In this document: in pieces, positions 38,643-59,080 of the stretch
How the letters are laid out: every line of letters begins with the position of its first letter
Position numbering within the stretch: the stretch's first letter is position 1
From: Minisyncoccota bacterium
GTDB lineage: Bacteria > Patescibacteriota > Minisyncoccia > Phycocordibacterales > UBA5272
DNA length: 64,000 bases
Direction: 5' to 3'
NCBI GenBank assembly: GCA_018063165.1
Contig: JAGOQU010000002.1
Span: 3,048 to 67,047 of the forward strand
Notes under the pieces: generated by a model
Told to the model about the DNA's origin: nothing
Database searches by the model: none
The model's input: the letters and a program-made list of their open reading frames with translations, nothing else
Made by a program: the position numbers and the translations under genes

Positions 38643-38714
38643 GCTCTCGTAGTTCAATGGATAGAATTCAAGTTTGCGGTACTTGCGATGCAGGTTCGAT
38701 TCCTGCCGAGAGCA
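38643..38714 (+). tRNA. tRNA, manual fold gives anticodon GCG (Arg); identity needs tRNAscan confirmation
   Basis: Acceptor GCTCTCG/CGAGAGC, anticodon stem CAAGT/ACTTG with loop TTGCGGT, T-arm CAGGTTCGATTCCTG. Confidence 0.65.
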
Positions 38715-38758
38715 CAAATACAAAACAACGACACCAAAGTGTCGTTGTTTTGTATTTG
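38715..38758 (+). terminator. Long perfect hairpin immediately 3' of the tRNA
   Basis: caaatacaaaacaacgacac-caaa-gtgtcgttgttttgtatttg (20-bp stem). Confidence 0.6.
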
Positions 38759-38856
38759 TGATCGAGAGAAAGCCAACTACTTGGCTTTCGTGTAAGAATC
38801 GAATAGGGGTCGAGGAGTCTCCTGTTTTATGTATTCATAAAACGAGACGAGGTGAC

Positions 38857-38872
38857 CGATTCCTGCCGAGAG
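38857..38872 (+). repeat. Direct copy of the tRNA 3' end (cgattcctgccgagag), ~160 bp downstream of the original at 38697..38712
   Basis: 16/16 nt identity; the similarity extends into the following 'acaaatacaaa'. Confidence 0.75.
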
Positions 38873-38909
38873 ACAAAATACAAATAACTTACTTTTAACA
38901 GTAGGGGTT

Positions 38910-39509
38910 TTAATCGTTGTTTTTCTTTGAATTATTTTCTTTCTGATCAATGTACCTTCTGAGTAGGAAGCTTCCAGTTTTGCCAAGTATATTAATTCCT
39001 CCGATGATTACTATTGCAGTAGCAATAATACCAAACTCATAACGTTTAACTTTACCGAGTATTTCTTCTAATAAATCACCAAACATATATCCTGCTCCAC
39101 CTACAACAATAACCCATACAATGGCAGCCAAAAAATTCCAAAATATAAACTTTTTAACCGGTAATGATGACATACCTAATCCAAAAGGAATTACGTGTCT
39201 AAACCCATACATGAACCGTAAAGCAAAAGCTGTTACTTCTGGTTTTGCATGGATAACTTTAAGTGGCTTACCCATATATTTTCTAAACCATTCATATTTA
39301 TGCATGAGTTTGTGACCTTTGTATCTTCCAAGTAAAAACCATGCCATATCACCGGTTACAGCACCTAAAAATGCAGCTATAAAAAGAGGTGTGATGGATA
39401 AGTAACCTTCGTATACAGCAAATCCTCCTAGAATAAGAACGCTTTCACCTTCAAATATTGAAACAAAAAAAACAGCAAGATATCCATATGTGATAATAAG
39501 TTGAATCAT
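38910..39509 (-). CDS. DedA/SNARE-associated family membrane protein
   Basis: 'VFFVSIFEGESVLILGGFAV' DedA signature, ~200 aa polytopic. Confidence 0.65.
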   Translation of the reverse strand: MIQLIITYGYLAVFFVSIFEGESVLILGGFAVYEGYLSITPLFIAAFLGAVTGDMAWFLLGRYKGHKLMHKYEWFRKYMGKPLKVIHAKPEVTAFALRFMYGFRHVIPFGLGMSSLPVKKFIFWNFLAAIVWVIVVGGAGYMFGDLLEEILGKVKRYEFGIIATAIVIIGGINILGKTGSFLLRRYIDQKENNSKKNND

Positions 39510-39542
39510 ATTAAGTGAGGTGATTTTATAAACATAATTATA

Positions 39543-41984
39543 TTAACTATTTTCAGTAGAATGTAAGTAAGGAATTTTCTTACTTAATATCTTCTTGTAT
39601 ACATAATCAGCAATTAAAATAATAAAACCAAGAAGAATGAGAGTAAAGACCAGTATGAGGTCTAAATCTGTTGTATGAAGAAGTCTATTTCCAATAGGTG
39701 AATAAATACTGCCAATCAAGACCAACGCTTCGAAACATACTGCAAATGTGATAAACATATTACTAAAAATAGAATATGTATTTATTGTGTCATAATTTTT
39801 TCTTACATTGAAAGCATGGAGCCAGATACCAACAGAAAAAAGAAGAATAAGTGCGGTTCTAACTTCTTCAATTGGTATACGATTTTTAAGAACAAACATA
39901 ACTGAAATAGAGATAAAACCTAATGTTAAACCAGAAACAAGAATTCTGTATATATCGTAACGATTAAGAAGTCCTCCTTTATACCGTTTAAATGTATATG
40001 ACGCATATTTTTCTTCAGGATTTTCTGTTGCTATTGCTACGTCAAGTAATCCCGCTGTAACAAAGTTAAGCCATAAAATCTGAACAGGTAAAAGTGGAAG
40101 TGGTTGATTAAGAATTGATGAACCTATAATTAAAACAAGAACACCTGAAGCTGAAGTCATTAAAAATACAAGTGCTTTTCTTATGTTTTCTGCAACTGTT
40201 CGTGCTTGAAAAATTGCTAGAACAATATCTGAAAAGTCATCATTGAGAAGTACAAGATCTGATGCTTCACGAGCCACGTCTGTCCCAGATTTACCCATAG
40301 ATATTCCAATGTCTGCAAGCGATAGAGCTGGGCCATCATTAACACCATCACCTGTCATTGCGACAACTTCACCTTTTTCTTGAAGTAATGAAACAATCCT
40401 TTCTTTGTTTGATGGTGTTACACGTGCAATAACTTTAATTAATTCTATTTTATTTTTAATTTCCTCATCAGTAAAATTATCTAATTCTTGTCCTGTAAGA
40501 CAAATATCTTGTTCTGAACTAAGAATACCAACCTCATGAGCTACATGCTTTGCTGTGAGAATGTTGTCACCAGTCATCATGATGATCTTAATACCTGTTT
40601 TTTTACAGTTAGATATTGATTCTTTTACTTCTTCTCGTATTTTATCTTCAAAAATAACAAGAGAAAGAGGTAATACATTTTCTGTTGAAAATTCCTCTTG
40701 TTCGTCTAGTAATTTGAATCCAACAAAAAGAACTCTGTATCCTTCTTTTGCATATTTATCAACACCTGGATGGTTAATTTTAAATACTTCACTTGCACCT
40801 TTATAGAGATGTAAAAACTTCCCATTATAACTGTATTCTTTCGCATTAAATTTAGACTCACTTGTAAAAGGTCTTTCTTTAGTTTCTTTATAAATAAATT
40901 CTTTAGATAAGAAAGACTCCATGACAATTTCAAGGACATCACCATTTTTTTTACCAGCTATATTTTTAATATCAAGACTGTGATAAATAAGTGAATCTTT
41001 TTCTTCTTGAGAAAAAGTTGATGTGTCTATATATATAATTTCTTTAACAGAAACATCACCATAGGTAAGTGTTCCTGTTTTGTCAGTACAAATGGTAGAA
41101 ACAGATGCGAGTGTTGCACCTGAAGGAAGATTGCGTAACAGTGCACGTGCCTTACTAATTTGGAGAGCTCCAATAGAAAGAACAACAGTAATGACAATTG
41201 GTAGGCCTTCTGGAATAACAGCTACACCCATTGCAGCGATTGTTTTTATGGTTGTTATAAATGATAAATCTCTATACATTGCAATAAGGAAAAAGATTAA
41301 AGAAGACACACCTAAAACAATAAGAAGAGTGAAAGAGAAAGAAGATATTTTCTTTTGAAGTTCAAGTATTTTATTTTTGTTTTTATCCATGTCTAATGCA
41401 AGTGTTCCAATCATTGTACTGTGTCCAACTTTTTCTACTTTTATAAATCCTTTTCCTGATACAACAACTGTACTTTTATATACAATTTCATCTTTATTTT
41501 CTTTAATAACAGGAAGCGATTCACCGTTAATACTACTCTCGTTAATTCCAAGATAATCTGAAGATATAACAATACCGTCTGCAGGAACAACATCTCCAGG
41601 TTCAAGATATACAACATCATCAACAGTTATATCAGAAGTGTGAACAGAAGTAAGTTTACCGTCCCGAATAACTTTTGTTTTTGGTTGAGAAAGTTTTTTG
41701 AGGGCAGACACAGCATTGTTTGCTCTATATTCTTGTATTGTTCCAACAAGAGCGTTAACAACAAGGACGCTAAAAATAACAATAGCATCCGTGTATTCTT
41801 TAGTTATTGTTGATATTAAAGCAACAAATAAAAGAATATAAACAAAAGGACTTTTAAACTGTTTTAAAAAAAGAATAAAAATAGTCTCTTTATTTTTTTC
41901 ATGGAGAGTGTTTTTACCATATAGACTTAGATTTTCTGAAGCTTCTTTTTGGGAAAGTCCAGATAGTTGAATTTCCTTTTGCAT
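39543..41984 (-). CDS. P-type cation-transporting ATPase (type II, Ca2+/Mg2+-like)
   Basis: 'CTDKTGTLT' phosphorylation motif, 'MTGDN', 'TGDGVNDGPAL', 10 TM arrangement. Confidence 0.85.
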   Translation of the reverse strand: MQKEIQLSGLSQKEASENLSLYGKNTLHEKNKETIFILFLKQFKSPFVYILLFVALISTITKEYTDAIVIFSVLVVNALVGTIQEYRANNAVSALKKLSQPKTKVIRDGKLTSVHTSDITVDDVVYLEPGDVVPADGIVISSDYLGINESSINGESLPVIKENKDEIVYKSTVVVSGKGFIKVEKVGHSTMIGTLALDMDKNKNKILELQKKISSFSFTLLIVLGVSSLIFFLIAMYRDLSFITTIKTIAAMGVAVIPEGLPIVITVVLSIGALQISKARALLRNLPSGATLASVSTICTDKTGTLTYGDVSVKEIIYIDTSTFSQEEKDSLIYHSLDIKNIAGKKNGDVLEIVMESFLSKEFIYKETKERPFTSESKFNAKEYSYNGKFLHLYKGASEVFKINHPGVDKYAKEGYRVLFVGFKLLDEQEEFSTENVLPLSLVIFEDKIREEVKESISNCKKTGIKIIMMTGDNILTAKHVAHEVGILSSEQDICLTGQELDNFTDEEIKNKIELIKVIARVTPSNKERIVSLLQEKGEVVAMTGDGVNDGPALSLADIGISMGKSGTDVAREASDLVLLNDDFSDIVLAIFQARTVAENIRKALVFLMTSASGVLVLIIGSSILNQPLPLLPVQILWLNFVTAGLLDVAIATENPEEKYASYTFKRYKGGLLNRYDIYRILVSGLTLGFISISVMFVLKNRIPIEEVRTALILLFSVGIWLHAFNVRKNYDTINTYSIFSNMFITFAVCFEALVLIGSIYSPIGNRLLHTTDLDLILVFTLILLGFIILIADYVYKKILSKKIPYLHSTENS

Positions 41985-42082
41985 AATAGAGAATATTTTA
42001 ATTATAGCAAAGAAAAGAAATTCTTATTTGTTATTTTTTAAGTAATGTACTTATCTGTTTTATTTAAGTAAAATTAAAACGA

Positions 42083-43211
42083 CTAACGGATAGCATTTTG
42101 AAGTATGGATTTTATTTGTTCGTTTACTAGTTCTGGATCTAATAATTTTCTTAACGCATTTATTTGTTTCGGTAAAATAGATTGACCGCATAATTCTTTG
42201 ATTCTTTCCGTAACAAGTGGAATATCTTTAAAAGATATTACCATATTAGATAATCCTACTTTATTTAGAATTTCAGAACACCCCATTGTTTCACTTACTA
42301 AAACAGGAATACCAAGACATACTGCTTCCATAGGAACATTACCAAAAGTTTCAAAATGAGAAGGGGATATTATCAAACCTTGGGATAAATAAAACCTCTT
42401 AATTCCTAATGTGTCCATTGGAGGTAATACAGTGACTGTTTTTGGTATTTTTTTCTCTATATTCGATACAAAAAAAACATTCATGGTCCCATTTTTGCTG
42501 TAAAAGTTTTTTATGGATTTCAAAAAAAGTATCAAAATTTTTAATGTAGGTATATCTTCCAACTCCAGCAATTCTTCTGGAAACACTAAAATCAACAGAA
42601 ACATCACTAAGAAAATCTTTATTTACAGCATTCGGTATAACGTATGTTTTTGCGGTTAAATGTTTATGAAATAATTCCTCAACAGTAGTCTTACATATTT
42701 TTGAAGGAAATATTATTTTTTTTGCTCTTTTAATAATACTTAACTCCATTAGATAAAAAAGTTTTCTATCTTTTTCTTTATAATGTTCAACTTCTTTTGT
42801 CAGGATTCCTGAGTACCAAAGAACGATAGGAATACCAGCTTTTTTGGCTGCGACAGAAAGTATCCAAGGAATGTAATAGGTGCCACTAATAAGAAATACA
42901 TCAGGTTTTGTTTCTTTTAAAATTAAATATACATCATTAATAACATCAGAAAAATAAGATTCTAAATCTTTTAAAATATTTGATGAATCAAGTGCTTCTT
43001 TTAAATTATAATTATGAATATTAATAATATTATGATCAAACAGAGCTGGGTTAAGCTGTCTAAAAATTACTGGTCCTTTCATAACACGTCGAGCATTTAT
43101 TTCAATTGCCACTGTTTGAATGTCTTGACCATAAATATGTTTAATAAAACTAAGATTAGAAGCCGTAATTCCTCCAAGAAACTCGCGAGAAACATTGATA
43201 GCAATTTTCAT
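42083..43211 (-). pseudogene. Family-1 glycosyltransferase split by a frameshift (N-terminal ORF 42399..43211, C-terminal ORF 42083..42607)
   Basis: C-terminal ORF carries the GT1 motif 'SHFETFGNVPMEAVCLGIPVLV'; the two ORFs overlap by ~209 nt in different frames. Confidence 0.5.
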
Positions 43212-43325
43212 AATAACTATAATTCTACCATTTTTAAACTATTTATTATAGAAATTTTATGAGATATTAGAACCTAAAGTACAAATACAAAAATGACACC
43301 ATGTAGTGTCATTTTTGTATTTTGA

Positions 43326-43620
43326 GTTATAAAGACTACTTATTGAGTGGTAACAAAAGTACCATTTAGATTCCAAATACTTACATTACCTTGTAAATCA
43401 GTAGCTACTATAACATAGTAATACTGAGTATTAGGAGAAAGGTTGTTTATAATAACTTGTTGTGATTGACGTGCAACTGAATCATTTGTAACAGAATAAC
43501 CATTTTTTGAACCAAAACCTACTTAGTTAATATCTCCTTCATTCATAGTTATTAGTCCTGAATTATAAAATACTTTTGCGGAAGCTAGTCATTTGTATTC
43601 CATGTAAAAGTAACAGCGGT
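43326..43620 (-). pseudogene. Remnant of a fibronectin-type-III-like domain protein gene
   Basis: Reverse-strand translation reads '...NNLSPNTQYYYVIVATDLQGNVSIWNLNGTFVTTQ*' but the region has in-frame stops upstream, and no ORF of 60 aa or more is present. Confidence 0.3.
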
Positions 43621-43689
43621 ATTTCTTACATATCTAGTTACATTAAAATTTGAAAGAATTTTCCTCTATTTTTCGTATATACTAGTGGT

Positions 43690-44256
43690 GTGCTTCATAT
43701 AACAACTCTCACAGATGAAGAATTGGCAAAACAAAGTGTTTTAGACACACTGTGTTTTGGTGAGCTTGTTGAAAGATATGATACTGTTTTACTTCGTTAT
43801 GTGATGAGACGTTCTCATGCTACAAAAGAAGATGCTGAAGATATAGTTCAAAATAGTTTTATTAAAATGTATCGTAACATTAATGATTTTGATCCTTCTT
43901 TAAAATTTTCTTCATGGGCATATCGTATTACTCATAATGAGCTTATTGACTGGTATCGTAAACAAAAAAGTAGACCGCAGATAAGTATTTCTAGTGGAGA
44001 TGAGGATGTTTTTTCTTCTATTGCAGGGGATATAAATATAGAAAAAGAAGCAATAGAACAAGAAACAAAAAAAGAAATTAAAAAAGTGGTAGAAACATTA
44101 GATCCAAAATATCAAGAAGTAGTCATGTTACGTTTTTTTGAAGAAAAAAGTTATGACGAAATAGCAGATATTTTACAAATTCCATCCGGTACAGTTGCTA
44201 TACGATTATCACGTGCAAAAAAGATTTTAGAAGAAAGTTTACAACCTTATTCATAA
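43690..44256 (+). CDS. ECF-type RNA polymerase sigma-70 family factor
   Basis: Region 2 'DIVQNSFIKMYRNINDFDP...FSSWAYRITHNELIDWYRKQ', region 4 'VVMLRFFEEKSYDEIADILQIPSGTVAIRLSRAKKIL'. Confidence 0.8.
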   Translation: MLHITTLTDEELAKQSVLDTLCFGELVERYDTVLLRYVMRRSHATKEDAEDIVQNSFIKMYRNINDFDPSLKFSSWAYRITHNELIDWYRKQKSRPQISISSGDEDVFSSIAGDINIEKEAIEQETKKEIKKVVETLDPKYQEVVMLRFFEEKSYDEIADILQIPSGTVAIRLSRAKKILEESLQPYS

Positions 44257-44263
44257 AATATAT

Positions 44264-45103
44264 ATGAATACAAAGATTTCACAAACAATTTTACATAAAA
44301 TAGAGAAAGAAAATATTAAACCAAAAGCAAGATGGTATTTTGTGCTTGAACATGGAATACTCTGGGTTCCAGGTATTCTTGTTACATTACTCGGAGCTGT
44401 TGCTGTAGCAGGTATAGTATATGCAGTAATGCATTCTGGTTGGGAATATAATGAATTTGTATATAAAACAAAAGTAGATTTTTTAATTGCTACTACTCCA
44501 TTTTTATGGGTGATTTCTTTTGCCCTTTTTAACTCTCTTATTGTTAAAGCTTTACGTACTACTCATTTGGGGTACAGGATGTCTGCTAAAAAAATAATTA
44601 TAGGAAGCTTTACTACAAGTATTATTCTTGGATGTTCTGTATATGTATTTGATGAAAAGTTTGAAGTAGATAGTCTTATACGTTATCCTGTACATATAAG
44701 AGAAAAAGGTGTTTGGTCTTCTCCGGAACAAGGAAGAATGTCTGGTATAGTAGAAAAGAAATATGAAAAAGCTTTACTTGTAAGAGATTTTGAAAATAGA
44801 CTTTGGATTGTTGATATGTCTGGTTTTGGTTCAACAACATTTCCTTTTGTAGAAGAAGGAAAAAGTATACGAGTTCTTGGTACAACTACAGAAAATGTAT
44901 CAATAAATACTGACGTTAATAAAGAATATTCTTTTGTTGCATGTGCTCTATTTCCTTGGGAAATAGGAGGTAGAATGCATAAGCAGATACCACCTAAAGG
45001 TGAATTTAATAAACCAAAATTTCGTTTAAATAATCAAAACCCAGATTGTGAAAGTATTTTAGAAGAAATGAAAGGAAAAGTAAGAATGAGTGAAAGAAAG
45101 TAA
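44264..45103 (+). CDS. Membrane protein, candidate anti-sigma factor (by position only)
   Basis: Immediately downstream of the ECF sigma gene; several TM helices. Confidence 0.35.
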   Translation: MNTKISQTILHKIEKENIKPKARWYFVLEHGILWVPGILVTLLGAVAVAGIVYAVMHSGWEYNEFVYKTKVDFLIATTPFLWVISFALFNSLIVKALRTTHLGYRMSAKKIIIGSFTTSIILGCSVYVFDEKFEVDSLIRYPVHIREKGVWSSPEQGRMSGIVEKKYEKALLVRDFENRLWIVDMSGFGSTTFPFVEEGKSIRVLGTTTENVSINTDVNKEYSFVACALFPWEIGGRMHKQIPPKGEFNKPKFRLNNQNPDCESILEEMKGKVRMSERK

Positions 45104-45862: not shown

Positions 45863-45907
45863 CATACATACATTAAATTGTATTTGTTCATATAGTATTT
45901 CTATCTT

Positions 45908-46777: not shown

Positions 46778-46898
46778 GATTTTAAAATTAAGTTACAAGA
46801 ATTTTTAAATAAGTAGTTTAATTGTAACATGAATCATTTTTAATAAGAGATACTAAATTTGTAGAAAATGTAGCATTATTATTTGTTGTAAAAATGTG

Positions 46899-47045
46899 AG
46901 ATTCGATTACAAAAGCAATCACTTCGTTCGAGAAGTTTTCGCATTTGTTCAAGTCCAAGACATAACCTTGCTAGGTTAGAACCGAATCTGCTGATTCGCC
47001 TATTCGAATCTCACACGAAAGTGACGCAGGTCACTTGCTTTCTAC
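46899..47045. repeat. tRNA-T-arm-derived palindromic repeat and GCAG-loop hairpin module
   Basis: Inverted copies 'gtgagattcga' (46899) and 'tcgaatctcac' (47003), which match the T-arm of nearby tRNAs. Internal segment 'caagtccaagacataacc...' homologous to 56128-56225 with compensatory changes. Hairpin aagtgac-gcag-gtcactt. Confidence 0.6.
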
Positions 47046-47177
47046 TTCTTCACTGTCAAAATAAAAATAGAGTAAGAAGCTCTGTTTTTATTTTGATGCA
47101 GGCACTGTGGGACGAAATTGGAATATTGCTATACATGAATAACACACCATAAAAACTTATCATTGTTTATATATAAA

Positions 47178-48121: not shown

Positions 48122-48202
48122 ACAAAATAACCACCGATTTTGGTGGTTATTTCTATGTGTGTTGCGGAGGCATATTCATAGTCGCGAGTACGTTCCTGAA
48201 TT
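48121..48202 (+). repeat. Repeat R1 copy A (hairpin aaataaccacc-gatttt-ggtggttattt + ~50 nt), followed by a ~95-bp insertion absent from copy B
   Basis: Aligned by eye to 50961..51040, with 3-4 substitutions over ~80 bp. Confidence 0.8.
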
Positions 48203-50735: not shown

Positions 50736-50960
50736 CTTTTTATTTCCTTAAGTTAAAAGAGCCACTTCCTGAAAGAGATTTTTAGTATCTTTAAGGATGT
50801 TACAAGTATACACGAAATACATATTTTGTCAAGTATCACCATTGACGACTTGTAAATTAAGTGTTTTCGTGTTAGTGTCCTCTGTAATGGATAAAAACCA
50901 TTAAAAACTCATATTCATTCTGTAAGAACAGAACTGAGAAACAATACAAGTACCGAGAAA

Positions 50961-51040
50961 TAACCACCGATTTTGGTGGTTATTTTTATGTGTGTTGCGG
51001 AGGCATATTCATAGTCGCGAGTACGCTCCTTGAAATGCAC
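50961..51040 (+). repeat. Repeat R1 copy B
   Basis: See copy A; together they bracket ~2.8 kb. Confidence 0.8.
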
Positions 51041-51079
51041 TGCGCAAAATATGTCTTTTGTTTACAAAAGACTATTTTG

Positions 51080-51170
51080 CGGAGAATGTGAGATTCGAAC
51101 TCACGGGCCTAATAAAAGGCCGACGGTTTAGTAAACCGTTGATTTAAGCCACTCATCCAATTCTCCTGTA
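51080..51170 (-). tRNA. Type-II (long variable arm) Ser-like tRNA with atypical anticodon arm; manual fold gives anticodon ACU
   Basis: Minus-strand fold: acceptor GGAGAAT/ATTCTCC, T-arm GTGAGTTCGAATCTCAC, variable arm CGGCCTTTTATTAGGCCCG, anticodon arm ACGGT-TTACTAA-ACCGT that is part of a perfect palindrome ACGGTTTA-C-TAAACCGT. Confidence 0.5.
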
Positions 51171-51678: not shown

Positions 51679-52686
51679 ATGAATAAACATAAAATTCTAG
51701 CCATAATAATGGCAGGGGGTATAGCTTTAACAGGAATATATGTTTCTTTTGCTGAAGAAAATGACGAACTTTCTTTTGATTTAAAGTTTGGACAAAGGGG
51801 AACACAAATTACTAAACTTCAAGATTTTCTTATAGAAAAGGGATATCTTAACACAAATTCTACAGGGTATTTTGGAAGAATGACTGCAAACGCCGTAGCT
51901 CGTTATCAAAAAGAAAATAACTTAGATTCTGTTGGTCGTGTCGGCCCACTTACACGTAAAGCTATGAATAAAGACATGCGAACTTTAAAAGAATTTAAGA
52001 AAAAAGGAGATGACCACTCTACACAAAATTCTCTTGATGTAGATGGTGTATATTCAGGAACACTTCCTTGTGCATCATGTTCTGGAATAGAGACAACACT
52101 TGAACTTAACAAAGGAACGTACACTCTTGTTGAAAAGTATCTAAAGAGTGACACTCTTGTATCTACTACAACAGGTTCGTTTACTTGGAAAGATAAAAAT
52201 GTAATCCAATTAACCGGTATAGCAACCGGAACACGATCGGTAATGTATAAAGTTGGTGAAAATACAATAACACAGCTTAATATGGATGGTAATATGGTTA
52301 CAGGAGAAACTGCTCCTTTCTATACGTTAAAGAAAGTTGTTGCGACAGGGTATTTTGTTGAAGATAAGAAGTGGAAAATGGTAGAACTTGAAGGAAAACC
52401 AATAACTGGTTCTGTTGAGACGTATTACATAGTGCTTCACTCAAAAGAGAAAAGATTAGAAACAAAAGCGGGATGTAATCAAATGGGTGGTATGTATACA
52501 TTAGATGGATATAGATTCAAAACATCAGGAGTATTTTCTACAATGATGGCATGTGAGAATATGAATGATGAGCAAGCATTTTCAAAAGTATTAGAACTTG
52601 CTGATAACATTTCATATTCTGAAACTAACCTATCTTTCAACAAAGCTAGAATGGCTCCACTTGCGAGATTTGAACTAGTGAAGTAA
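51679..52686 (+). CDS. Peptidoglycan-binding domain + NlpE-N-like + META/HslJ-like domain protein
   Basis: PG_binding_1 pattern 'GTQITKLQDFLIEKGYLN...GYFGRMTANAVARYQKENNLDSVGRVGPLT'; 'LPCASCSGIETTLEL' NlpE-like. Confidence 0.55.
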   Translation: MNKHKILAIIMAGGIALTGIYVSFAEENDELSFDLKFGQRGTQITKLQDFLIEKGYLNTNSTGYFGRMTANAVARYQKENNLDSVGRVGPLTRKAMNKDMRTLKEFKKKGDDHSTQNSLDVDGVYSGTLPCASCSGIETTLELNKGTYTLVEKYLKSDTLVSTTTGSFTWKDKNVIQLTGIATGTRSVMYKVGENTITQLNMDGNMVTGETAPFYTLKKVVATGYFVEDKKWKMVELEGKPITGSVETYYIVLHSKEKRLETKAGCNQMGGMYTLDGYRFKTSGVFSTMMACENMNDEQAFSKVLELADNISYSETNLSFNKARMAPLARFELVK

Positions 52687-52708
52687 TTTGAAGTTTCTTG
52701 TTTAAAAG

Positions 52709-52740
52709 AAAAACAGAGCTTGAATGCTCTGTTTTTCTTT
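52709..52740 (+). terminator. Terminator hairpin
   Basis: aaaaacagagc-ttgaat-gctctgttttt. Confidence 0.55.
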
Positions 52741-52745
52741 TGATG

Positions 52746-52832
52746 CGGAGGAGGTGAGATTCGAACTCACGGTCCGATTACTCAGACTCCTGTTTTCAAG
52801 ACAGGTGCAATCGACCACTCTGCCACTCCTCC
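52746..52832 (-). tRNA. tRNA-Ser (anticodon TGA), type II
   Basis: Minus-strand fold: GGAGGAGTGGCAGAGTGG..., anticodon arm CCTGT-CTTGAAA-ACAGG, long variable arm, T-arm GTGAGTTCGAATCTCAC. Confidence 0.75.
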
Positions 52833-52919
52833 ATATTATTATCGATTGATACCTATTCTAACATACATATTTTGTTTTTTAAAGGTATCACTATATACTA
52901 GTATGATTACAATAAATAT

Positions 52920-53978
52920 ATGCAAAAAGAAGTACATACTACTACATTGCTTAGTGTCATAAAATATAAATATGCCCCATTTTTTATAATAGTACTATCT
53001 GGTATTATTTTTGGTGCCGGATATATAACATCTTCTTTAATTACTGAAGATAAATACCAAGATTTTTTGAGTAATTTTAAGAACATCCGTGAAGATACAT
53101 CAAAATATACGTTTATTAACCCACTCGTTGGTAACATAAGTGCACCAGCGACAGATGTTGGTATATATACAGATATTAAAGAAGATATAGATTCTTATTT
53201 GGAAAAACAAAAGAAAAAAGGTGAATTGTTTAATTATTCTTTTTATTTTAGAGATTTGAATTCTGGTCTTTGGTTTGGTTCTAACGAATTAGAATCTTTT
53301 TTTCCTGCTAGTTTATTTAAATTACCTATTGCTCTTGCAGCATACAAACAAACAGAAGATAAGCCTGGTTTCATTAATACAATGGTTGTATATACAGAGG
53401 ATATAGCAAAAAGAAATGAGGTAGTACAAATAAATGCAGTGAGTACTCTTACTATAGGGAAAGCATATTCAATAGAGTATCTAATAGAAAGAATGTTAAT
53501 TGACTCTGATAACGGAGCAAAAGATTTAATACTTTCTGTTCTTGATATGAAATATTTTGATGATCTTTTTCAGACTGTATCTTTTGTTGATTATAATACA
53601 GATAATAAGTATTCACTTTCTTCTTGTAAATATTCTTTGTTTCTAAGAGTTCTTTATGGGTCATCGTATGTTAATGAAACACATTCAGAACTTATTATGT
53701 CTTTACTAACTAAAAGTGAATATAAAGATGGTTTGGTAGGAGGTATACCAGGTTCTGTTAAGGTAGCTCATAAGTTTGGTACGTATCAGTTTGATGAAGA
53801 GGAAAAAGGTGTAACAGTTTCTTCAAGACAGTTACATGATTGTGGTGTTGTGTACCATTTAGAAAATCCATATGTTATTTGTTTCATGACAAAAGGAAAA
53901 GATCTTGAAACGTTACAAAAAATAATTGGACATATTTCTTCCTTAGTATATCAATATCAATCAGAAGGAGATCATTAA
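52920..53978 (+). CDS. Beta-lactamase class A-like / penicillin-binding serine hydrolase fold protein
   Basis: 'ASLFK' (SxxK), 'DSDN' (SDN), 'HKFGT' (K[T/F]G); N-terminal TM. Confidence 0.55.
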   Translation: MQKEVHTTTLLSVIKYKYAPFFIIVLSGIIFGAGYITSSLITEDKYQDFLSNFKNIREDTSKYTFINPLVGNISAPATDVGIYTDIKEDIDSYLEKQKKKGELFNYSFYFRDLNSGLWFGSNELESFFPASLFKLPIALAAYKQTEDKPGFINTMVVYTEDIAKRNEVVQINAVSTLTIGKAYSIEYLIERMLIDSDNGAKDLILSVLDMKYFDDLFQTVSFVDYNTDNKYSLSSCKYSLFLRVLYGSSYVNETHSELIMSLLTKSEYKDGLVGGIPGSVKVAHKFGTYQFDEEEKGVTVSSRQLHDCGVVYHLENPYVICFMTKGKDLETLQKIIGHISSLVYQYQSEGDH

Positions 53979-53986
53979 ATATATAT

Positions 53987-54448
53987 ATGAAATATCTTGG
54001 TTTAGATTTTGGTTCTAAAAAAGTTGGATTTGCTCAGTCAGATGATGAAGGAAGACTTGCTTTTCCTCTCATGATTGCACCAAATGATACTTCTTTGTTA
54101 AAAGATACACTTGAACTTATTCGTGAAATGAAGTTTTCTGTTGTTGTAATAGGGGAGAGTGTTGATGGTAATGGAACATTAAATCCAATAGCAAAAGAAG
54201 CTAGAGCTTTTGGTGCAAAAATTGAAAATGGAATAGATGTTATTGTAAAATTTGAAAAGGAGTGGTATTCGACAGTGGAAGCTCGTAAACAACCTGGTAA
54301 TGAAGGTAATCATGAAGTTGACGATCAAGCCGCTGCTATTGTTCTTCAAAGATATCTTGATAAGATTAACGGTCCACAAATATCTGAAGAAACATTTGGT
54401 GATGAAGAAGATTTGGATGAAGTAGAACAAACTTCTGATTCTTGGTAA
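53987..54448 (+). CDS. ruvX: YqgF/RuvX-like Holliday-junction-resolvase-family nuclease
   Basis: 'YLGLDFGSKKVGFAQSDDEGRLAFPL', 'VVVIGESVDGNG' RNase H-fold pattern. Confidence 0.7.
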   Translation: MKYLGLDFGSKKVGFAQSDDEGRLAFPLMIAPNDTSLLKDTLELIREMKFSVVVIGESVDGNGTLNPIAKEARAFGAKIENGIDVIVKFEKEWYSTVEARKQPGNEGNHEVDDQAAAIVLQRYLDKINGPQISEETFGDEEDLDEVEQTSDSW

Positions 54449-54458
54449 TATAGTATAT

Positions 54459-54839
54459 ATGGATAATAAAGATACACAAGATAATAAAAGCGTTGTTAAT
54501 GAAACAGAAAAAGAATATATAACTATTGATGATTTTGTAAAAATTGATATCAGAGTAGGGGAGGTGCTTTCTGTTTCTGTTGTTGAAGGTGCTGATAAAT
54601 TATATATTCTTTCTGTTGATTTAGGTGAAGAAAAACCAAGACAAATCCTTTCAGGTATTAGAGAATTTATAGAGAGTGTAGACCTTGTTGGAAAACAGTT
54701 TCCATTTATTACAAATTTAGCACCTCGTATGTTAAGGGGGCATGAATCACAAGGGATGATATTAGCAGGAAGTGACGAACATGGTTTAGCTCTTTTTAAT
54801 CCTTCTAAAACACTTAAAAACGGAACAAGACTTAGATAG
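54459..54839 (+). CDS. tRNA-binding (EMAP/Myf/CsaA-like) domain protein
   Basis: 'DFVKIDIRVGEVLSV...KLYILSVDLGEE..RQILSGI...FITNLAPRMLRGHESQGMILA'. Confidence 0.7.
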   Translation: MDNKDTQDNKSVVNETEKEYITIDDFVKIDIRVGEVLSVSVVEGADKLYILSVDLGEEKPRQILSGIREFIESVDLVGKQFPFITNLAPRMLRGHESQGMILAGSDEHGLALFNPSKTLKNGTRLR

Positions 54840-54869
54840 AAAACAAAAAAAGATTAAAAATCTTTATTT

Positions 54870-55469
54870 TTGATATGGTATGATTACACTATGATACAAA
54901 AGTTAGTTTCTTGGACAGAGGCATTCGCTAAACACAAACACAATGAATTATATTTATTTGCTGTAGCTTTTACAGAATCTTCTTTTTTTCTTATACCTCC
55001 TGATGTTCTTATTATAGCCATTCTTTCACATGGTATAAAAGTTTCTTGGCTTCGTATAGCGTCTATTTCAACCGTTGGATCAGTTCTGGGAGGTATTTTT
55101 GGATACTTAATAGGAAGTTTTTTTTATACACATATAGGAGAACCTGTCGTTGTTATGTATGGTCTTCAGGAAGAAGTGCTGTATGTTGGTGAACAGTTCA
55201 AAAAAAATGCTTTCCTTTCTATTTTAGTAGCTGCTTTTACTCCTATTCCTTATAAAGTCTTCACTATTTCTGCTGGTCTTTTTTCACTTAATTTATTTAC
55301 ATTTATTGGTGCGTCAATTGTTGGTCGTGGTGCTCGTTTTTTTCTGGTAGCTTTTTTAGCAGATAGATACGGAGAGAAAACAAAAGAGTTTATAGTAAAA
55401 AAATTTGATGCTGTCTTTTTTGTTATAGGTATATTAATTCTTTTTTTACTTTATTTTGTTAATAAGTAG
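54870..55469 (+). CDS. DedA/YqaA-family membrane protein
   Basis: 'LFAVAFTESSFFLIPPDVLIIAIL'. Confidence 0.6.
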   Translation: MIWYDYTMIQKLVSWTEAFAKHKHNELYLFAVAFTESSFFLIPPDVLIIAILSHGIKVSWLRIASISTVGSVLGGIFGYLIGSFFYTHIGEPVVVMYGLQEEVLYVGEQFKKNAFLSILVAAFTPIPYKVFTISAGLFSLNLFTFIGASIVGRGARFFLVAFLADRYGEKTKEFIVKKFDAVFFVIGILILFLLYFVNK

Positions 55470-55483
55470 AGTATACTTTCTAT

Positions 55484-55717
55484 ATGAATCACCACATATG
55501 TATACATGATGAATATAGTACTTTTGATGGAGAGTTTGTACCTATTGGAAAACAACTTATTGAAAAAGATATAACGCAAGCTATTAATGAAGTGCTTGAT
55601 ATGATTGTTCACAAAATTGGAAAAGGGAATGTGGTTGTTTGTGGAAAAGGTGATGCAAAAAGAATGTTAGGTAGAAAACTCGAAGATAGATTAGGGAGAA
55701 AAGTGGAGTACGAATAA
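55484..55717 (+). CDS. Hypothetical small protein (77 aa)
   Basis: ORF only. Confidence 0.3.
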   Translation: MNHHICIHDEYSTFDGEFVPIGKQLIEKDITQAINEVLDMIVHKIGKGNVVVCGKGDAKRMLGRKLEDRLGRKVEYE

Positions 55718-55754
55718 AACAAAATACGTTTTATTTAAATAGTTTTTTGTAGAT

Positions 55755-55772
55755 GTGCCCTCGCGTGGAATC
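55755..55772 (+). repeat. Direct copy of the tRNA-Arg(TCT) 3' end (gtgccctcgcgtggaatc), ~145 bp beyond the gene
   Basis: 18/18 nt identical to 55919..55936. Confidence 0.75.
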
Positions 55773-55869
55773 TGTCACAAATCTGCCTCGCTTTGCTCGA
55801 AGCAGATTCGCGATCCCGTATTCGCTTCCACCGTAAGTGACGAAGGTCACTTACTTTCTGTTGACATTG

Positions 55870-55917
55870 TTAATATAAAAAGTACCCACTGATTACAGTC
55901 GGTACTTTTTATATTAA
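55870..55917. terminator. Long perfect hairpin adjacent to the tRNA-Arg(TCT) 3' end
   Basis: ttaatataaaaagtacc-(14 nt)-ggtactttttatattaa. Confidence 0.55.
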
Positions 55918-55919
55918 TG

Positions 55920-55991
55920 TGCCCTCGCGTGGAATCGAACCACGAATAACGGCTTAGAAGTCCGCAGTTATATCCATTTAACTACAAGGGC
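55920..55991 (-). tRNA. tRNA, manual fold gives anticodon TCT (Arg); weak 27:43/31:39 pairs
   Basis: Minus-strand: GCCCTTG-TA-GTTA...TAAC-T-GCGGA-CTTCTAA-GCCGT-...CGTGGTTCGATTCCACG-CGAGGGC-A. Confidence 0.6.
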
Positions 55992-56127
55992 GTAAAGCAC
56001 AGTATATATACTATCAGAAATTTTAAAAAGAGGCGAGAAGTATAGTAAGTACACCTTGTTGTTTTATCGGAATCGGTCACGTAAACAATTTTTGATTACA
56101 AAAAATAGAAGTCTACCCTTGATTCCA

Positions 56128-56225
56128 AGTCCAAGACATAACTTTACTAAGTTAGAATTGAACTTGCTAGTTCTCCGCATTCGAATCCTCACGTACGACA
56201 CGCAGGTGTCGTACTTATTTCCCAC
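56128..56225. repeat. Structured repeat module homologous to 46951-47045
   Basis: Shared 'caagtccaagacataac'; three consecutive hairpins with compensatory changes relative to the 46.9-kb copy (aacc..ggtt vs aact..agtt; gaatc-tgct-gattc vs gaact-tgct-agttc; N9-gcag-N9'). Confidence 0.6.
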
Positions 56226-56274
56226 TAAAATACAAAAACAGAATCATTTGATTCTGTTTTTGTATTTTAGTGGG
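56221..56274. terminator. 26-bp perfect hairpin overlapping the tRNA-Val 3' end
   Basis: cccactaaaatacaaaaacagaatca-tt-tgattctgtttttgtattttagtggg. Confidence 0.6.
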
Positions 56275-56343
56275 AAATAGAGGATTCGAACCTCTGACCT
56301 TCGCTGTGTAAAAGCGCTGCTCTACCAACTGAGCTAATCTCCC
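56271..56343 (-). tRNA. tRNA-Val (anticodon TAC)
   Basis: Minus-strand: GGGAGATTAGCTCAGTTGGTAGAGC..., loop TTTACAC, T-arm GAGGTTCGAATCCTC. Confidence 0.7.
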
Positions 56344-56439
56344 TTATGAATATAATACTATCACATCTTTGTATATTTACACAAGTCATCTAAGATGTTC
56401 TTATTAGTAAAAAAGTCATGTTTCTGCTAGTATGGTCTT

Positions 56440-57174
56440 ATGAAATTCCCAATTCTTTTTGAGAACAAGCACGCTGTTATTATTAATAAGCCAGCGGGTA
56501 TTATTGTGCATCCAGATGAAAGACAAGAAGAATACACTGTTGCAGAATGGGTGAAAGAAACCTACGGTGCTTTAGGGGTTGGTGAAATTGGTAGAGAAGG
56601 TGTTGTGCATAGACTAGATAGAAACACCACAGGTGTACTTGTGTTGGCAAAAGATAATATTGCATACACAACATTTAAAAAACAATTTAGAGATCATACA
56701 GCCCGCAAAGTATACAGAGCTATTGTAGAAGGACATATTAGACATGACACAGGAATGATTAGTCTTCCTATAGCGCGAGCTAAAAGTGATTTTCGTAAAA
56801 GAACAACGGTAGATATGTTTTCACAAGATCAACGAGGAGAAGAAAGAGATGCAATTACACGATATAAAGTTCTTGAGAGGGTAACAGCTTCAAATGGTCA
56901 ACATTATTCTTATGTTGAATGTTATCCTTTAACTGGCCGAACACATCAAATAAGGGCGCATTTTCGAGGTATTCGTCATCCTATTATAGGAGATGATCTC
57001 TATGGGTCTTTTAAGGGCAAAGATATGGCTCCTAGATCTATGCTTCATGCTTATTCTATTACAATAGACATTCCAAATGAGAACGAAGGTAAAACTAATG
57101 AAACAATTCTTGCAGAAATTCCTAAAGATTTTAAAGATACCTTAAAAGCTCTTACTTTTAGTTTCAAATCCTAA
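56440..57174 (+). CDS. RluA-family pseudouridine synthase
   Basis: Catalytic 'HRLDRNTTGVLVLAKD'. Confidence 0.85.
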   Translation: MKFPILFENKHAVIINKPAGIIVHPDERQEEYTVAEWVKETYGALGVGEIGREGVVHRLDRNTTGVLVLAKDNIAYTTFKKQFRDHTARKVYRAIVEGHIRHDTGMISLPIARAKSDFRKRTTVDMFSQDQRGEERDAITRYKVLERVTASNGQHYSYVECYPLTGRTHQIRAHFRGIRHPIIGDDLYGSFKGKDMAPRSMLHAYSITIDIPNENEGKTNETILAEIPKDFKDTLKALTFSFKS

Positions 57175-57279
57175 AAAATCAATAAAATCTGTATTTTGAA
57201 GATAGTTTCATAGGGAATAGTTTAAATCTCTTGCGAAATATCATTTTTTATGATATTATCTCTCTACTAAGATATTTCT

Positions 57280-57708
57280 ATGAAAACAACGATTACTTTT
57301 ACACCAGTTGATATTGAAGCCCGCAAATCATTAGATTTTTCATCTGGTGATGTTGTTCGTGTATGGAACAAGATTAAAGAAGCTGATGGAAAGACACGTC
57401 TTCAGGCTTTTGAAGGTATGGTTCTTGCTCGTAAGCATGGTACAGAAATAGGGGCCACATTTACTATTCGTCGTGTTGCTTCAGGTGTTGGGGTTGAACG
57501 TGTATTTCCACTTTTTGGTGTAATGATTGATAAAATAGAAATTGTTCGTCGTGCTCGTACACGTCGTAGTAAACTTTACTATGTTCGCGACAAAGCTCTT
57601 CGTGATGTACGTCGTAAGCTTAAGAAAGATACTCGTGTTGTTAAGAAAGGAAGTACAACAACAATGGAGGCTGTTGTAGAAGAAATTTCAGAAGAAGTAA
57701 CAGCATAA
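57280..57708 (+). CDS. rplS: 50S ribosomal protein L19
   Basis: 'FSSGDVVRVWNKIKEADGKTRLQAFEGMVLARKHGTEIGATFTIRRVASGVGVERVFPL'. Confidence 0.85.
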   Translation: MKTTITFTPVDIEARKSLDFSSGDVVRVWNKIKEADGKTRLQAFEGMVLARKHGTEIGATFTIRRVASGVGVERVFPLFGVMIDKIEIVRRARTRRSKLYYVRDKALRDVRRKLKKDTRVVKKGSTTTMEAVVEEISEEVTA

Positions 57709-57710
57709 TA

Positions 57711-57747
57711 AAAAAACCTCAATCAGAAACGATTGAGGTTTTTTTTA
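57711..57747 (+). terminator. Intrinsic terminator after rplS
   Basis: aaacctcaatc-agaaac-gattgaggttt + T-run. Confidence 0.6.
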
Positions 57748-57919
57748 TTTTGTTTGATTTACTAGATGAGCTAATAATATCGGGAATTGGTCATCAAATA
57801 TACATAATACGAAATAGGAGGACTTGATCACAAAGTCTATTTTGATTACAAAAATATAGGACTTTGCGATCCCTACTCAAGTCCATATAAAAGTGATAGA
57901 AGAACTAACAATATCGGGA

Positions 57920-57992
57920 CTTGGTCACCTCGTCTCGTTTCAGGATTATCTGAAACAGTAGACTCCTCGACCCCTATTCAAGTCCTCACGCA
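57920..57992. repeat. Structured repeat module, inverted homolog of 38795-38856
   Basis: Reverse complement reads 'gaataggggtcgaggagtctactg-tttcag..ctgaaa-cgagacgaggtgacc' versus 38801 'gaataggggtcgaggagtctcctg-ttttatg..cataaaa-cgagacgaggtgacc' (the hairpin stem differs, with compensatory changes). Confidence 0.6.
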
Positions 57993-58014
57993 TGACACGC
58001 AGGTGTCATGCTTC

Positions 58015-58074
58015 CTGGGCACCAATGTAAAAAAGCAACATCATTTGATGTTGCTTTTTTACATTGGTGCCCAG
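58015..58074. terminator. 29-bp perfect hairpin incorporating the tRNA-Leu 3' end
   Basis: ctgggcaccaatgtaaaaaagcaacatca-tt-tgatgttgcttttttacattggtgcccag. Confidence 0.6.
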
Positions 58075-58151
58075 GAGAGGACTTGAACCTCCATGCCGTT
58101 GCCAGCGCTACCACCTCAAGGTAGTGCGTCTACCAGTTTCGCCACCTGGGC
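58065..58151 (-). tRNA. tRNA-Leu (anticodon GAG), type II, with genomically encoded CCA
   Basis: Minus-strand: GCCCAGGTGGCGAAACTGGTAGACGCA-CTACC-TTGAGGT-GGTAG-variable arm-GGAGGTTCAAGTCCTCT-CCTGGGC-A-CCA. Confidence 0.7.
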
Positions 58152-58243
58152 ATATATACTTTTTCTCCTTCGTGAGGTACTTAAAATACTACCATAAAAA
58201 CAAGAAAAATAAAATGGCTTCATTTAAGAAGCCATTTAACTAC

Positions 58244-58693
58244 TTAATACAAATCTTTGAAAGTGACTTTGTATAAAAGCATTGTTTTTTCACCTAAGTG
58301 AAGAATTTTAAGAGAACCGTATTCATTTTTAAAATGAATATACGGTATAAGCGCAAATGTTAATAATTTGTATTTTTCTTGCGATTCAAGATAATAACTG
58401 ATCAATTCATCAGGTTGCATGAACATGGGTTTACCGGAATTACTGAGATTAATTGCCGTATCTTTTTCAGAAAAATTTCTTTTTTGTAATGCTGTTAAAG
58501 CAAAACCCGAAGAAATAGAATATTCTACTTGTTGATATGGTTTATCATGAAAAGAATATGAATAGTTTTTTTCTGTTTGTTTTTCGATAAGCGAATAGTC
58601 TATGTAAAGACTGTTTTCGGCAAAAACGAGTGCTGGGTTTATGGTAAGAATTACAGAAAAAATAACAAAAAAGAGGGATCTGAATACTTGCAT
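58244..58693 (-). CDS. Secreted hypothetical protein (149 aa)
   Basis: Signal peptide 'MQVFRSLFFVIFSVILTINPALVFA'. Confidence 0.4.
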   Translation of the reverse strand: MQVFRSLFFVIFSVILTINPALVFAENSLYIDYSLIEKQTEKNYSYSFHDKPYQQVEYSISSGFALTALQKRNFSEKDTAINLSNSGKPMFMQPDELISYYLESQEKYKLLTFALIPYIHFKNEYGSLKILHLGEKTMLLYKVTFKDLY

Positions 58694-58959
58694 TATGTAT
58701 CTCCTTTTGTGGTGGTTGTGATATTTAAAAAGAACAGAACTTTATACTAGCACTTTGCTTAGTATAAAGCACTCTTCAAAAAAATAGAAATATGTGTTAG
58801 AGTAAAGACCTGATTCTGTGGTCCACACATGGAATTAGCGTTTCCTAATCCTTCTATTTAGAAGTGTATTATTTGTTAGGAATTTAGATGAGATTTTACT
58901 TCCTGTGTTTTGTGTAATGAAAGTAAATTCTCACTCAGAATATAACTGAGAATTAAGAT

Positions 58960-59032
58960 GGTGCCTATAGTGTAATGGTTAGCACTAGGGTTTGTGGAAC
59001 CCTCAGTTCGGGTTCAAATCCCGATAGGCACA
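58960..59032 (+). tRNA. tRNA-His (anticodon GTG) with extra 5' G
   Basis: G-GTGCCTA...anticodon arm AGGGT-TTGTGGA-ACCCT, T-arm CGGGTTCAAATCCCG, acceptor TAGGCAC-A. Confidence 0.7.
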
Positions 59033-59080
59033 CACGTGAAAAAAGACAGCTTTGGCTGTCTTTTTTCGTGTGTGCCTATC
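59023..59080 (+). terminator. Long hairpin incorporating the tRNA-His 3' end
   Basis: gataggcacacacgtgaaaaaagacagc-tttg-gctgtcttttttcgtgtgtgcctatc. Confidence 0.55.

Follow-up and report, generated by a model that had tools for sequence, protein, structure and literature searches.

Long hairpins at tRNA gene ends of a Patescibacteriota chromosome segment combine a terminator with one arm of a conserved element

Long hairpins stand directly behind five transfer RNA (tRNA) genes in a 64-kilobase (kb) stretch of DNA from a Minisyncoccota bacterium (contig JAGOQU010000002.1), which is called the window here. Each consists of a terminator joined to one arm of a conserved element that is found behind tRNA genes of many bacteria. 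The inner part of the hairpin is a Rho-independent, bidirectional terminator typical of the genome. The outer extension comes from a small non-coding element, whose left arm is an inverted copy of the tRNA 3' end. All coordinates are positions within the window, and L-numbers (L031 etc.) denote fetched comparison loci.

Seven tRNA genes were recognized in concurrence by ARAGORN and Rfam, at the positions given earlier from the letters alone (the sequence-only reading). Long hairpins right behind five of them, which that reading had reported, were confirmed by position, fold energy, and shuffles. They are listed with strand, base pairs (bp), and nucleotides (nt).

58013-58043 and 58046-58076 (-): arms of the tRNA-Leu hairpin (tRNA 58065-58151); 31/31 bp perfect, 12 tRNA nt inside, -54.4 kcal/mol, z -14.7.
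56216-56246 and 56249-56279 (-): arms of the tRNA-Val hairpin (tRNA 56270-56343); 31/31 bp perfect, 10 tRNA nt inside, -43.5 kcal/mol, z -14.4.
59023-59080 (+): tRNA-His hairpin (tRNA 58961-59033); 12 and 14 bp flanking a 2-nt bulge, ~11 tRNA nt inside, -45.1 kcal/mol, z -11.7.
38710-38763 (+): tRNA-Arg(GCG) hairpin, terminator-type (tRNA 38643-38715), beginning inside the tRNA, in its final 2-5 nt; perfect over 22 bp (or 25 bp if one mismatch is allowed), -35.1 kcal/mol.
55870-55917 (-): tRNA-Arg(TCT) hairpin (tRNA 55919-55991), beginning 2 nt past the tRNA end; 17 bp perfect plus an inner 4-bp stem, -26.5 kcal/mol.

The z-scores of the five ranged from -10 to -15, and dinucleotide shuffles never folded as well as any of them. 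In a census of perfect stems over the whole 64 kb, the top three (31, 31, and 22 bp) were all at tRNA 3' ends, and the non-tRNA terminators had 18, 17, 16, 15, and 14 bp. The sequence-only reading had given perfect stems of 17-29 bp. Perfection holds for Leu, Val, and Arg, but the maximum is 31 bp and the His stem is imperfect. Its statement that the tRNA 3' end lies inside the Val, Leu, and His stems was correct, and the part inside is the final 10-12 nt.

The other two tRNA genes have hairpins as well.

51043-51082 (-): near-perfect ~17-bp hairpin of tRNA-Ser(ACT) (tRNA 51079-51166), a type-II tRNA with an unusual anticodon; the last 2-3 tRNA nt are included.
52704-52741: hairpin of tRNA-Ser(TGA), a terminator common to convergent genes.

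The former had been described as only a short hairpin, which has to be revised, and the shared terminator of the latter had been recognized properly. The 11-mer GCGTACTCGCG lies ~40 nt beyond the tRNA-Ser(ACT) hairpin and is also present within the Arg(TCT) element of L031. In other genomes, comparable long hairpins that embed the tRNA end were found at tRNA-Trp of L056 (31 bp, 10 tRNA nt) and tRNA-Asp of L119 (29 bp); this form is restricted to a subset of the element family. L031 and L111, both Candidatus Saccharibacteria assemblies, are the closest fetched relatives, and they are syntenic with the window at 71-75% DNA identity across rluD-rplS. In the tRNA-Val orthologue of L031, the spacer sequence of the hairpin differs from that of the window on both arms in concert. 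Because both arms changed together, this shows that the Val palindrome is actively maintained, and selection and templated correction are not told apart by it.

All five tRNA hairpins have a GC-containing stem-loop with a T-run directly after it, at the 3' end of a transcription unit, as intrinsic terminators do. Non-tRNA genes end in equivalent palindromes of A-tract, stem, and T-tract, often with AAATACAAAA-stem-TTTTGTATTT shoulders (1202-1241, 43283-43322, 52704-52741, and others). The generic terminators of the genome have perfect stems of 14-18 bp and -20 to -28 kcal/mol. However, the stems of tRNA-Val, Leu, and His are not built from spacer only, i.e., they hold 10-12 tRNA nt. When equal hairpins were sought after non-tRNA genes, the core proved generic, whereas embedding of a tRNA tail was seen only beside tRNAs or elements. 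The earlier view that the stems exceed the needs of a terminator is thus right for Leu, Val, and His, but both Arg hairpins are within or near the generic range. The distal hairpin arm complements the tRNA tail because it complements the right arm of the element itself, which is a duplicate of that tail. Footprints of tRNA-templated elements had been one of the options offered for the long stems. This option fits, since the distal arm is the left arm of the conserved element and the right arm, 60-200 nt further on, copies the same tail directly. The term recombination site can plausibly be applied to the element as a whole, but not to the hairpin by itself.

The full unit has a constant order. 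The tRNA tail (S) is followed by spacer and terminator hairpin (R), inverted S, the junction CGAAA, GGGGTCGAG, a variable hairpin, GGTGAC, and a direct S. Inverted S, a scaffold of 60-150 nt, and direct S were found in this order in every unit. The inverted S is often interrupted by a hairpin with a CCTGCG loop, and the CGAAA junction has an optional hairpin. The element is 100-250 nt in size, minimal units being ~170 nt, and its arm ends read GGAYTYGAA and CRADTCC.

When the regions downstream of the five tRNA hairpins of the window were aligned, the conserved element was present in 5/5. The left part is the inverted acceptor 3' strand, then a second hairpin of 8-9 bp (hairpin 2), then GTG. 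The loop of hairpin 2 is CCTGCG in Val, Leu, and a tRNA-less copy at 47 kb. After GTG come the inverted T-stem 3' strand and T-loop, e.g., GAGGATTCGAAT, and then the scaffold, i.e., GGGGTCGAG(GAG), variable hairpin, and (CGAG)GTGAC. The right arm is a direct tRNA copy that starts at C56 of the T-loop. Two stretches of the scaffold, 19 and 17 nt long, are shared without mismatch by the Arg(GCG) and Leu units, with ~0 expected by chance. GAATAGGGGTCGAGGAGTC and AACGAGACGAGGTGACC occur twice each in the window vs a chance expectation of ~0.

The element is widespread and apparently uncatalogued. GTDB species representatives were scanned with a scaffold pattern, and high-GC matches inside open reading frames (ORFs) were counted as chance. 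At least about 50 genuine matches were found among the matches listed, in Saccharibacteria, Paceibacterota, Dojkabacteria, Kaiser-, Moran-, Taylor-, and Nomurabacteria, Burkholderiales, Bdellovibrionales, and Hydrogenedentota. In metagenomes, a stricter pattern gave 31 matches which all look real, on low- to mid-GC contigs and mostly with an adjoining tRNA. By BLAST, two Cupriavidus chromids, those of Cupriavidus sp. EM10 (L123) and C. metallidurans CH34 (L155), were found to carry the element behind tRNA-Leu(CAG).

1,180,827-1,180,950 of the CH34 chromid NC_007974.2: minimal element behind tRNA-Leu(CAG), as in EM10, with scaffold GGGGTCGCGCATGGGTGAC.

In CH34, a direct repeat of ~75 nt comprises the tRNA tail, the terminator, and the beginning of the left arm. 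Viral contigs of IMG/VR gave three matches, all chance ones inside one high-GC coding sequence, and no genuine element. BLAST with the Burkholderiales element gave nothing in phages and, among plasmids, only the Cupriavidus chromids. Rfam 15 recognized only tRNAs in the window; the scaffold had no match at E up to 10 (55.6-59.5 kb) or up to 1 (seven loci including Burkholderiales). Literature searches gave no description of such an element, which is weak evidence of novelty.

The association with tRNA genes was examined by a covariance model built from 33 units, with E < 0.001 for family counts. There were 109 matches in 99 loci. A same-strand tRNA ended no more than 300 nt upstream in 81/109, with a median spacer of 58 nt. 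Decorated tRNAs were 79/127 of those assessable and covered 15 amino-acid types, in a sample biased by the selection of loci for the element. The arms follow the tRNA beside them. Among 72 non-redundant units, the right arm matched its own tRNA tail at 19/19 in 32 and at 17/19 or better in 40 (cross-locus null mean 10). Of the 72, 13 had an exact inverted acceptor copy, and 23 had one that matched at 7/8 or better (null 0.3% and 5.4%). In the Burkholderiales metagenome-assembled genomes L014 and L021, tRNA-Ser(CGA) has arms of tRNA-Ser(GCT) type, and tRNA-Ser(GCT) has a right arm of CGA type. These reciprocal types suggest that elements of two tRNA loci have recombined with each other. At first sight, L014 and L021 place the crossover at the tRNA end and not in the T-loop, but such recombination would explain them as well.

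The two arms derived from S pair on the tRNA-sense strand and form a long helix, P1, which ends in a conserved three-way junction. In P1, 145 cells were changed on both sides, and 0/500 shuffles matched this covariation. At the junction, CGAAA stays unpaired, and an optional hairpin there is rich in loops of the GCGAAGC type. GGUCG:UGACC, an invariant helix of 5 bp, adjoins the 3' strand of P1 without spacer and bears the variable hairpin. The sense strand folds better than the antisense strand in 43/45 units, and G-U pairs number 126 vs 47. Because of this folding advantage and G-U excess, the modeled folds point to a single-stranded form of the sense strand, RNA or DNA. By eye, the conserved nucleotides did not fit the consensus features of hammerhead, hepatitis delta virus (HDV)-like, twister, pistol, and hatchet ribozymes, k-turn, T-box, or retron non-coding RNA; the formal test of these was Rfam only. 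A primer-binding site, which would be complementary to the 3' end of the mature tRNA, was also rejected. The inverted copy follows the gene sequence, has no CCA complement where CCA is unencoded, and the repeats run past the tRNA.

The unit is an insertion, as its presence or absence at orthologous tRNAs, subtype turnover, tandem arrays, and expandable R were observed. The tRNA-His gene is empty in L031, where its native terminator is followed directly by the next promoter, and the element intervenes in the window, L111, L125, and L132. The right arm of L132 and its flank align collinearly with the empty tRNA-His site. Orthologous tRNAs carry different subtypes, i.e., Arg(TCT) in the window vs L031, Arg(GCG) in the window vs L047, and Leu among the window, L031, and L047. 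The tRNA-Trp element of L056 has a scaffold 94% identical to that of the Arg(GCG) unit of the window. Tandem units were found in L047, L112, L056, and at tRNA-Leu of the window. The length of R ranges from ~45 nt up to several kb of accessory genes. Cargo between the tRNA and the left arm is a GmrSD restriction enzyme in L010, which has an exact tRNA-tail repeat 2 kb downstream, and 0.9-4.3 kb in L130, L132, and L135. Pfam matches in the cargo were GmrSD, cupin, HIT, and nucleotidyltransferase.

Taking the evidence together, we favor with moderate confidence a reading in which the hairpin is a terminator plus the left arm of an inserted tRNA-anchored element, and in which recombination supplied in trans on a folded intermediate is the preferred route. 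A small circular or folded single-stranded intermediate would integrate at the tRNA gene end. The helix of S and inverted S would imitate the tRNA gene at its double-stranded 3' end, and the trans-acting recombination activity would act on this helix. A precedent is CTX phage, whose folded attP hairpin is integrated by host XerCD. One strand exchange at the tRNA end would yield S, R, inverted S, scaffold, and S. Tandem arrays, no element-borne enzyme, strand-specific folding, and variable cargo are consistent with this strand-exchange model.

Several points weigh against this reading. No recombinase, transposase, or reverse transcriptase was found in or near any element by a motif scan of the window ORFs and inspection of neighbors over ~100 loci, and the window had no tyrosine-recombinase motif. 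All-against-all clustering of 471 neighboring ORFs gave only syntenic housekeeping clusters and no recurrent protein. The CTX-like step is thus a proposal drawn from the architecture, with a putative agent acting in trans. The circular or single-stranded free form is likewise a putative intermediate. The terminator separates the tRNA from the scaffold, which leaves scaffold transcription unexplained if the scaffold acts as RNA. A role at the DNA level would need a conserved partner for scaffold conservation across phyla, and none was found. Simple site-specific integration fails to explain arms matched to more than 15 different tRNAs. The arms of the other tRNA-Ser in L014 and L021 need an extra assumption, i.e., the recombination between elements at two loci. 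Approximately 1/3 of right arms match the T-loop and T-stem part only, which may be decay or a different crossover point.

A wider proposal can be made tentatively, and we hold it as a possibility rather than an expectation. The family would be a hitherto undescribed class of protein-less, tRNA-anchored mobile cassette system, with a conserved three-way-junction nucleic acid whose closing helix mimics the tRNA gene 3' end. It might serve as a folded single-stranded attachment site or as a self-processing RNA, and it would use a universal host activity. Its inserts would range from ~45 nt to several kb, including accessory and defence genes, and would build integron-like arrays in Patescibacteria and Burkholderiales.

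The element may instead be a functional tRNA-like structured RNA, transcribed either by read-through of the tRNA gene or from a promoter of its own. It would be a substrate or decoy of tRNA enzymes, i.e., RNase P, RNase Z, the CCA-adding enzyme, or T-arm modifiers, and its tail complementarity would regulate or assist 3' maturation. P1 and the GGUCG:UGACC helix would stack like an acceptor stem on a T-stem. Strand-specific folding and the G-U excess on the tRNA-sense strand agree with such an RNA, as do invariant junction nucleotides, covarying hairpins, and the T-stem/acceptor-like topology. GGGGUC-GAGG also reads like a variable loop and T-stem 5' strand, and many tRNAs are decorated in reduced genomes (5/7 in the window, 79/127 in the biased sample of fetched loci). 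However, an intrinsic terminator lies ahead of the scaffold in nearly all copies, and many left arms are no longer complementary to the acceptor strand. Presence/absence polymorphism, subtype turnover, tandem arrays, and tRNA-distant copies behind cargo are unexpected for a dedicated maturation factor. Moreover, there is no Rfam family, and the supplements of the CH34 transcriptome paper have no entry at the element coordinates. This RNA is therefore considered unlikely, while it keeps more weight than the alternatives below.

Template switching during replication would need no dedicated machinery. A switch at the terminator palindrome and the T-loop core TTCGAA would give a direct-inverted-direct triplication, which is the order of S, inverted S, and S. 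It would spread by homologous recombination after DNA uptake, with the tRNA gene and right arm as homology, and quasi-palindrome correction would keep the arms perfect. The inner ends of both arms do lie in self-complementary TTCGAA, and the arms of hairpin 1 co-vary between the window and L031. The ~75-nt direct repeat of CH34 (S, terminator, and start of the left arm) looks like a tandem duplication, and no associated protein turned up. What this process leaves unexplained is the invariant central scaffold (GGGGTCGAG ... GGTGAC, CGAAA, and CCTGCG loop) from Saccharibacteria to Cupriavidus, and also the strand-specific folding. It is judged improbable.

Decayed integrase-driven islands or prophages at tRNA genes would leave attL and attR with the interior mostly deleted, as in cis-mobilisable elements. 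Direct tRNA 3'-end repeats around foreign DNA are reportedly a hallmark of tRNA-gene islands. Such repeats surround the inserted DNA here, and the cargo consists of accessory or defence genes. Nevertheless, an integrase or integrase pseudogene was found in 0 of ~100 loci, and viral contigs gave no genuine match. Random decay would not leave one structured 60-150-nt scaffold and an inverted att copy across many phyla, so this origin is very improbable. Equally little probability is given to merely generic bidirectional Rho-independent terminators lengthened by A-tract/T-tract pairing in an AT-rich genome. The same-form stems of non-tRNA genes, the T-run after every stem, and the range of both Arg hairpins agree with them, but for Leu, Val, and His the idea is largely refuted: all three of the longest perfect stems in the window belong to tRNA ends, the additional 10-12 bp come from an inverted tRNA tail that termination does not need and that also pairs with the downstream direct copy, and the hairpin is part of a conserved element known from other phyla.

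The window has about 12 copies of the element, and the covariance model recovers 7-8 of them, all between 38 and 63 kb. Individual copies and their parts are as follows; matches are those of the covariance model.

38764..38875 (+): E1, after tRNA-Arg(GCG); hairpin 2 at 38770-38789; match at 38790-38868, E 9e-5; inverted T-loop GAATCGAAT ending at 38804; scaffold GGGGTCGAGGAG-hairpin-CGAGGTGAC at 38806-38856; right arm CGATTCCTGCCGAGAGACA at 38857-38875, a direct copy of the tRNA-Arg tail.
46890..47100 (-): degenerate element behind a protein gene, with no adjoining tRNA; match at 46894-47016, E 0.17; terminator, hairpin 2 with CCTGCG loop, and GTG-TGAGATTCGAAT ... CGAATCTCA, with inverted and direct T-loop arms.
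55754..55917 (-): hairpin 1 and E2, after tRNA-Arg(TCT); hairpin 2 at 55833-55854; type-B scaffold GGGATCGCGA-hairpin-TTGTGAC at 55774-55817; right arm AGATTCCACGCGAGGGCACA at 55754-55773, 18/19 identical to the tRNA tail.
56069..56279 (-): hairpin 1 and E3, after tRNA-Val; hairpin 2 at 56193-56214; GTGAGGATTCGAAT at 56179-56192; degenerate scaffold ending in GTGAC and then CGATTCC at 56069-56080.
57778..58076 (-): tRNA-Leu unit; hairpin 2 at 57991-58010; match at 57912-57990, E 3e-5; two to three tandem scaffold units at 57917-57990, 57817-57889, and a remnant near 57780.
59023..59273 (+): hairpin 1 and E5, after tRNA-His; hairpin 2 at 59083-59106; GTGGATTTGAAG at 59107-59118; match at 59104-59274, E 1e-7; long hairpin a, scaffold core from 59199, GGTGAC at 59257-59262, and right arm CAAATCCCGAT at 59263-59273.
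59811..60082 (+): E6, His-type, no tRNA; S* at 59811-59838; hairpin 1 at 59835-59878; match at 59908-60075, E 2e-6; inverted His tail GTGTGCCTATC, hairpin 2, scaffold, and right arm CAAATATCCCGATAGGCATAC.
60905..61105 (+): E7, His-type, partly decayed; TGCCTATC, hairpin 2, GTGGGATTTGAAC, and GCGAGGTGAC followed by CAAATC; match at 60944-61110, E 0.07.
61968..62138 (+): E8, variant; S*, hairpin, the tRNA-His tail inverted without mismatch over 21 nt (GTGCCTATCGGGATTTGAACC, 62050-62070), variant scaffold, and GGCAAATCCC; match at 62055-62138, E 0.008.
62747..63010 (+): E9, His-type; S*, hairpin 1 at 62770-62814, and hairpin 2; match at 62845-63011, 40.7 bits, E 3e-8; scaffold core from 62936, then GGTGAC followed by CAAATCCTGAC.

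The tRNA-His locus (58961-63100) is an integron-like array, in which five His-type modules (59.0, 59.8, 60.9, 62.0, and 62.8 kb) lie between short gene cassettes. The cassettes encode a cupin (59399-59785), secreted proteins (~60.1-60.9 and 61.1-62.0 kb), a HIT protein (62245-62742), and a membrane protein (from 63030). L132 is organised like the window at this locus, and L031 has one variant module only. In every non-first module of His arrays, a conserved tRNA-tail-like piece (S*), GAGTTCTAATCCCGTCTACGACAGTACAC, lies ahead of hairpin 1. It was seen in the window at 59811-59838, 61968-61995, and 62747-62774, in L132 at 8031 and 10520, in L031 at ~4130, and in L076. S* takes the position of the tRNA tail of the first module, yet pairing of S* with the left arm is absent. 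The program-called ORF starts, GTG 60054 (60054-60398) and ATG 61087 (61087-61962), fall within element scaffolds. Translation probably begins further downstream, at the ATGAAAA... codons (~60105 and ~61135) after a TATACT-like box.

The window is a bacterial chromosome segment of 32% GC with housekeeping gene content, i.e., MurE-like ligase, RuvA, RluD, RplS, YqgF, DnaA/DnaN, and a type IV secretion-like cluster. A phage origin was dropped, as megablast gave no match and the genes are chromosomal housekeeping genes. The dnaA and dnaN genes lie within 24661-27373, and the cumulative GC skew has a low plateau at 8-20 kb and a steady rise from ~30 kb; therefore, the window probably spans the replication origin. 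Element orientation in the window tracks the strand of the tRNA, not replication direction. Identical hairpins with 11-bp stems (AAATAACCACC gatttt GGTGGTTATTT) were found at 48125-48152 and 50958-50985, with ~2.8 kb of small GNAT/NUDIX-like genes between them. This pair may be a duplicated terminator or the termini of another insertion.

If the favored reading is true, a large share of the tRNA genes of many bacteria carries an unannotated structured non-coding module, which has no integrase itself and yet imports accessory and defence genes. It would be a new route to tRNA-gene islands, in ultra-small Patescibacteria as well as in the tractable model C. metallidurans CH34. With arms that follow the tRNA beside them, the attachment site would be effectively programmable. 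For annotation, the elements, which are not in Rfam, account for odd long palindromes at tRNA ends and false long ORF starts, e.g., 60054 and 61087.

Among known systems, intrinsic terminators share the inner 12-20 bp with A-tract, GC-containing stem, short loop, and T-tract at a gene 3' end, as other window genes also do. Unlike them, the present stem runs into the tRNA acceptor 3' strand and its inverted copy, reaches 31 bp and -54 kcal/mol, and is part of a separate conserved element. Miniature inverted-repeat transposable elements (MITEs) and REPIN-type repeats are also short and non-coding, occur in multiple copies, and fold to a hairpin through inverted arms at their ends. However, the present arms are variable and follow the neighboring tRNA, the site of the element downstream of tRNA genes is fixed, the duplicated stretch measures 19 to ~75 nt, and neither a related transposase nor a RAYT turned up.

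Integron attC sites and cassette arrays resemble the element in imperfect palindromes with conserved ends and a variable middle, which lie between promoter-bearing or single-gene cassettes of an array anchored at one primary site (here tRNA-His, 59-63 kb). The differences are that the array head is tRNA-His, that IntI, attI, and Pc are absent, and that the arm ends lack R''/R' boxes (RYYYAAC / GTTRRRY), the arms instead copying 10-20 nt of the primary site.

Integrative elements that target tRNA genes have direct copies of the tRNA 3' end around the insert and leave the tRNA intact, with presence/absence polymorphism, tandem arrays, and accessory cargo. The flanking repeat (19 nt identical, 32/72) and filled and empty sites (tRNA-His) were both found here. 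Unlike those elements, the present one has no integrase, its minimal units are only ~170 nt, and it has a structured scaffold with an inverted att copy beside the distal repeat.

Integrative mobile elements exploiting Xer (IMEX), such as CTX phage, have a folded single-stranded attP, in which two inverted dif-like sites lie ~90 nt apart, and use host XerCD. In the present element, the target is a tRNA gene end, clearly not dif, the arms vary by tRNA, the "loop" is a conserved three-way junction, and Xer-type binding sites were not recognised. Nevertheless, two inverted target copies 60-150 nt apart lie at the insert end next to the regenerated target. Target duplication at the ends, tandem arrays, a recombinase-free element, and a one-strand folding bias are also shared, and a single exchange of this kind predicts the observed order.

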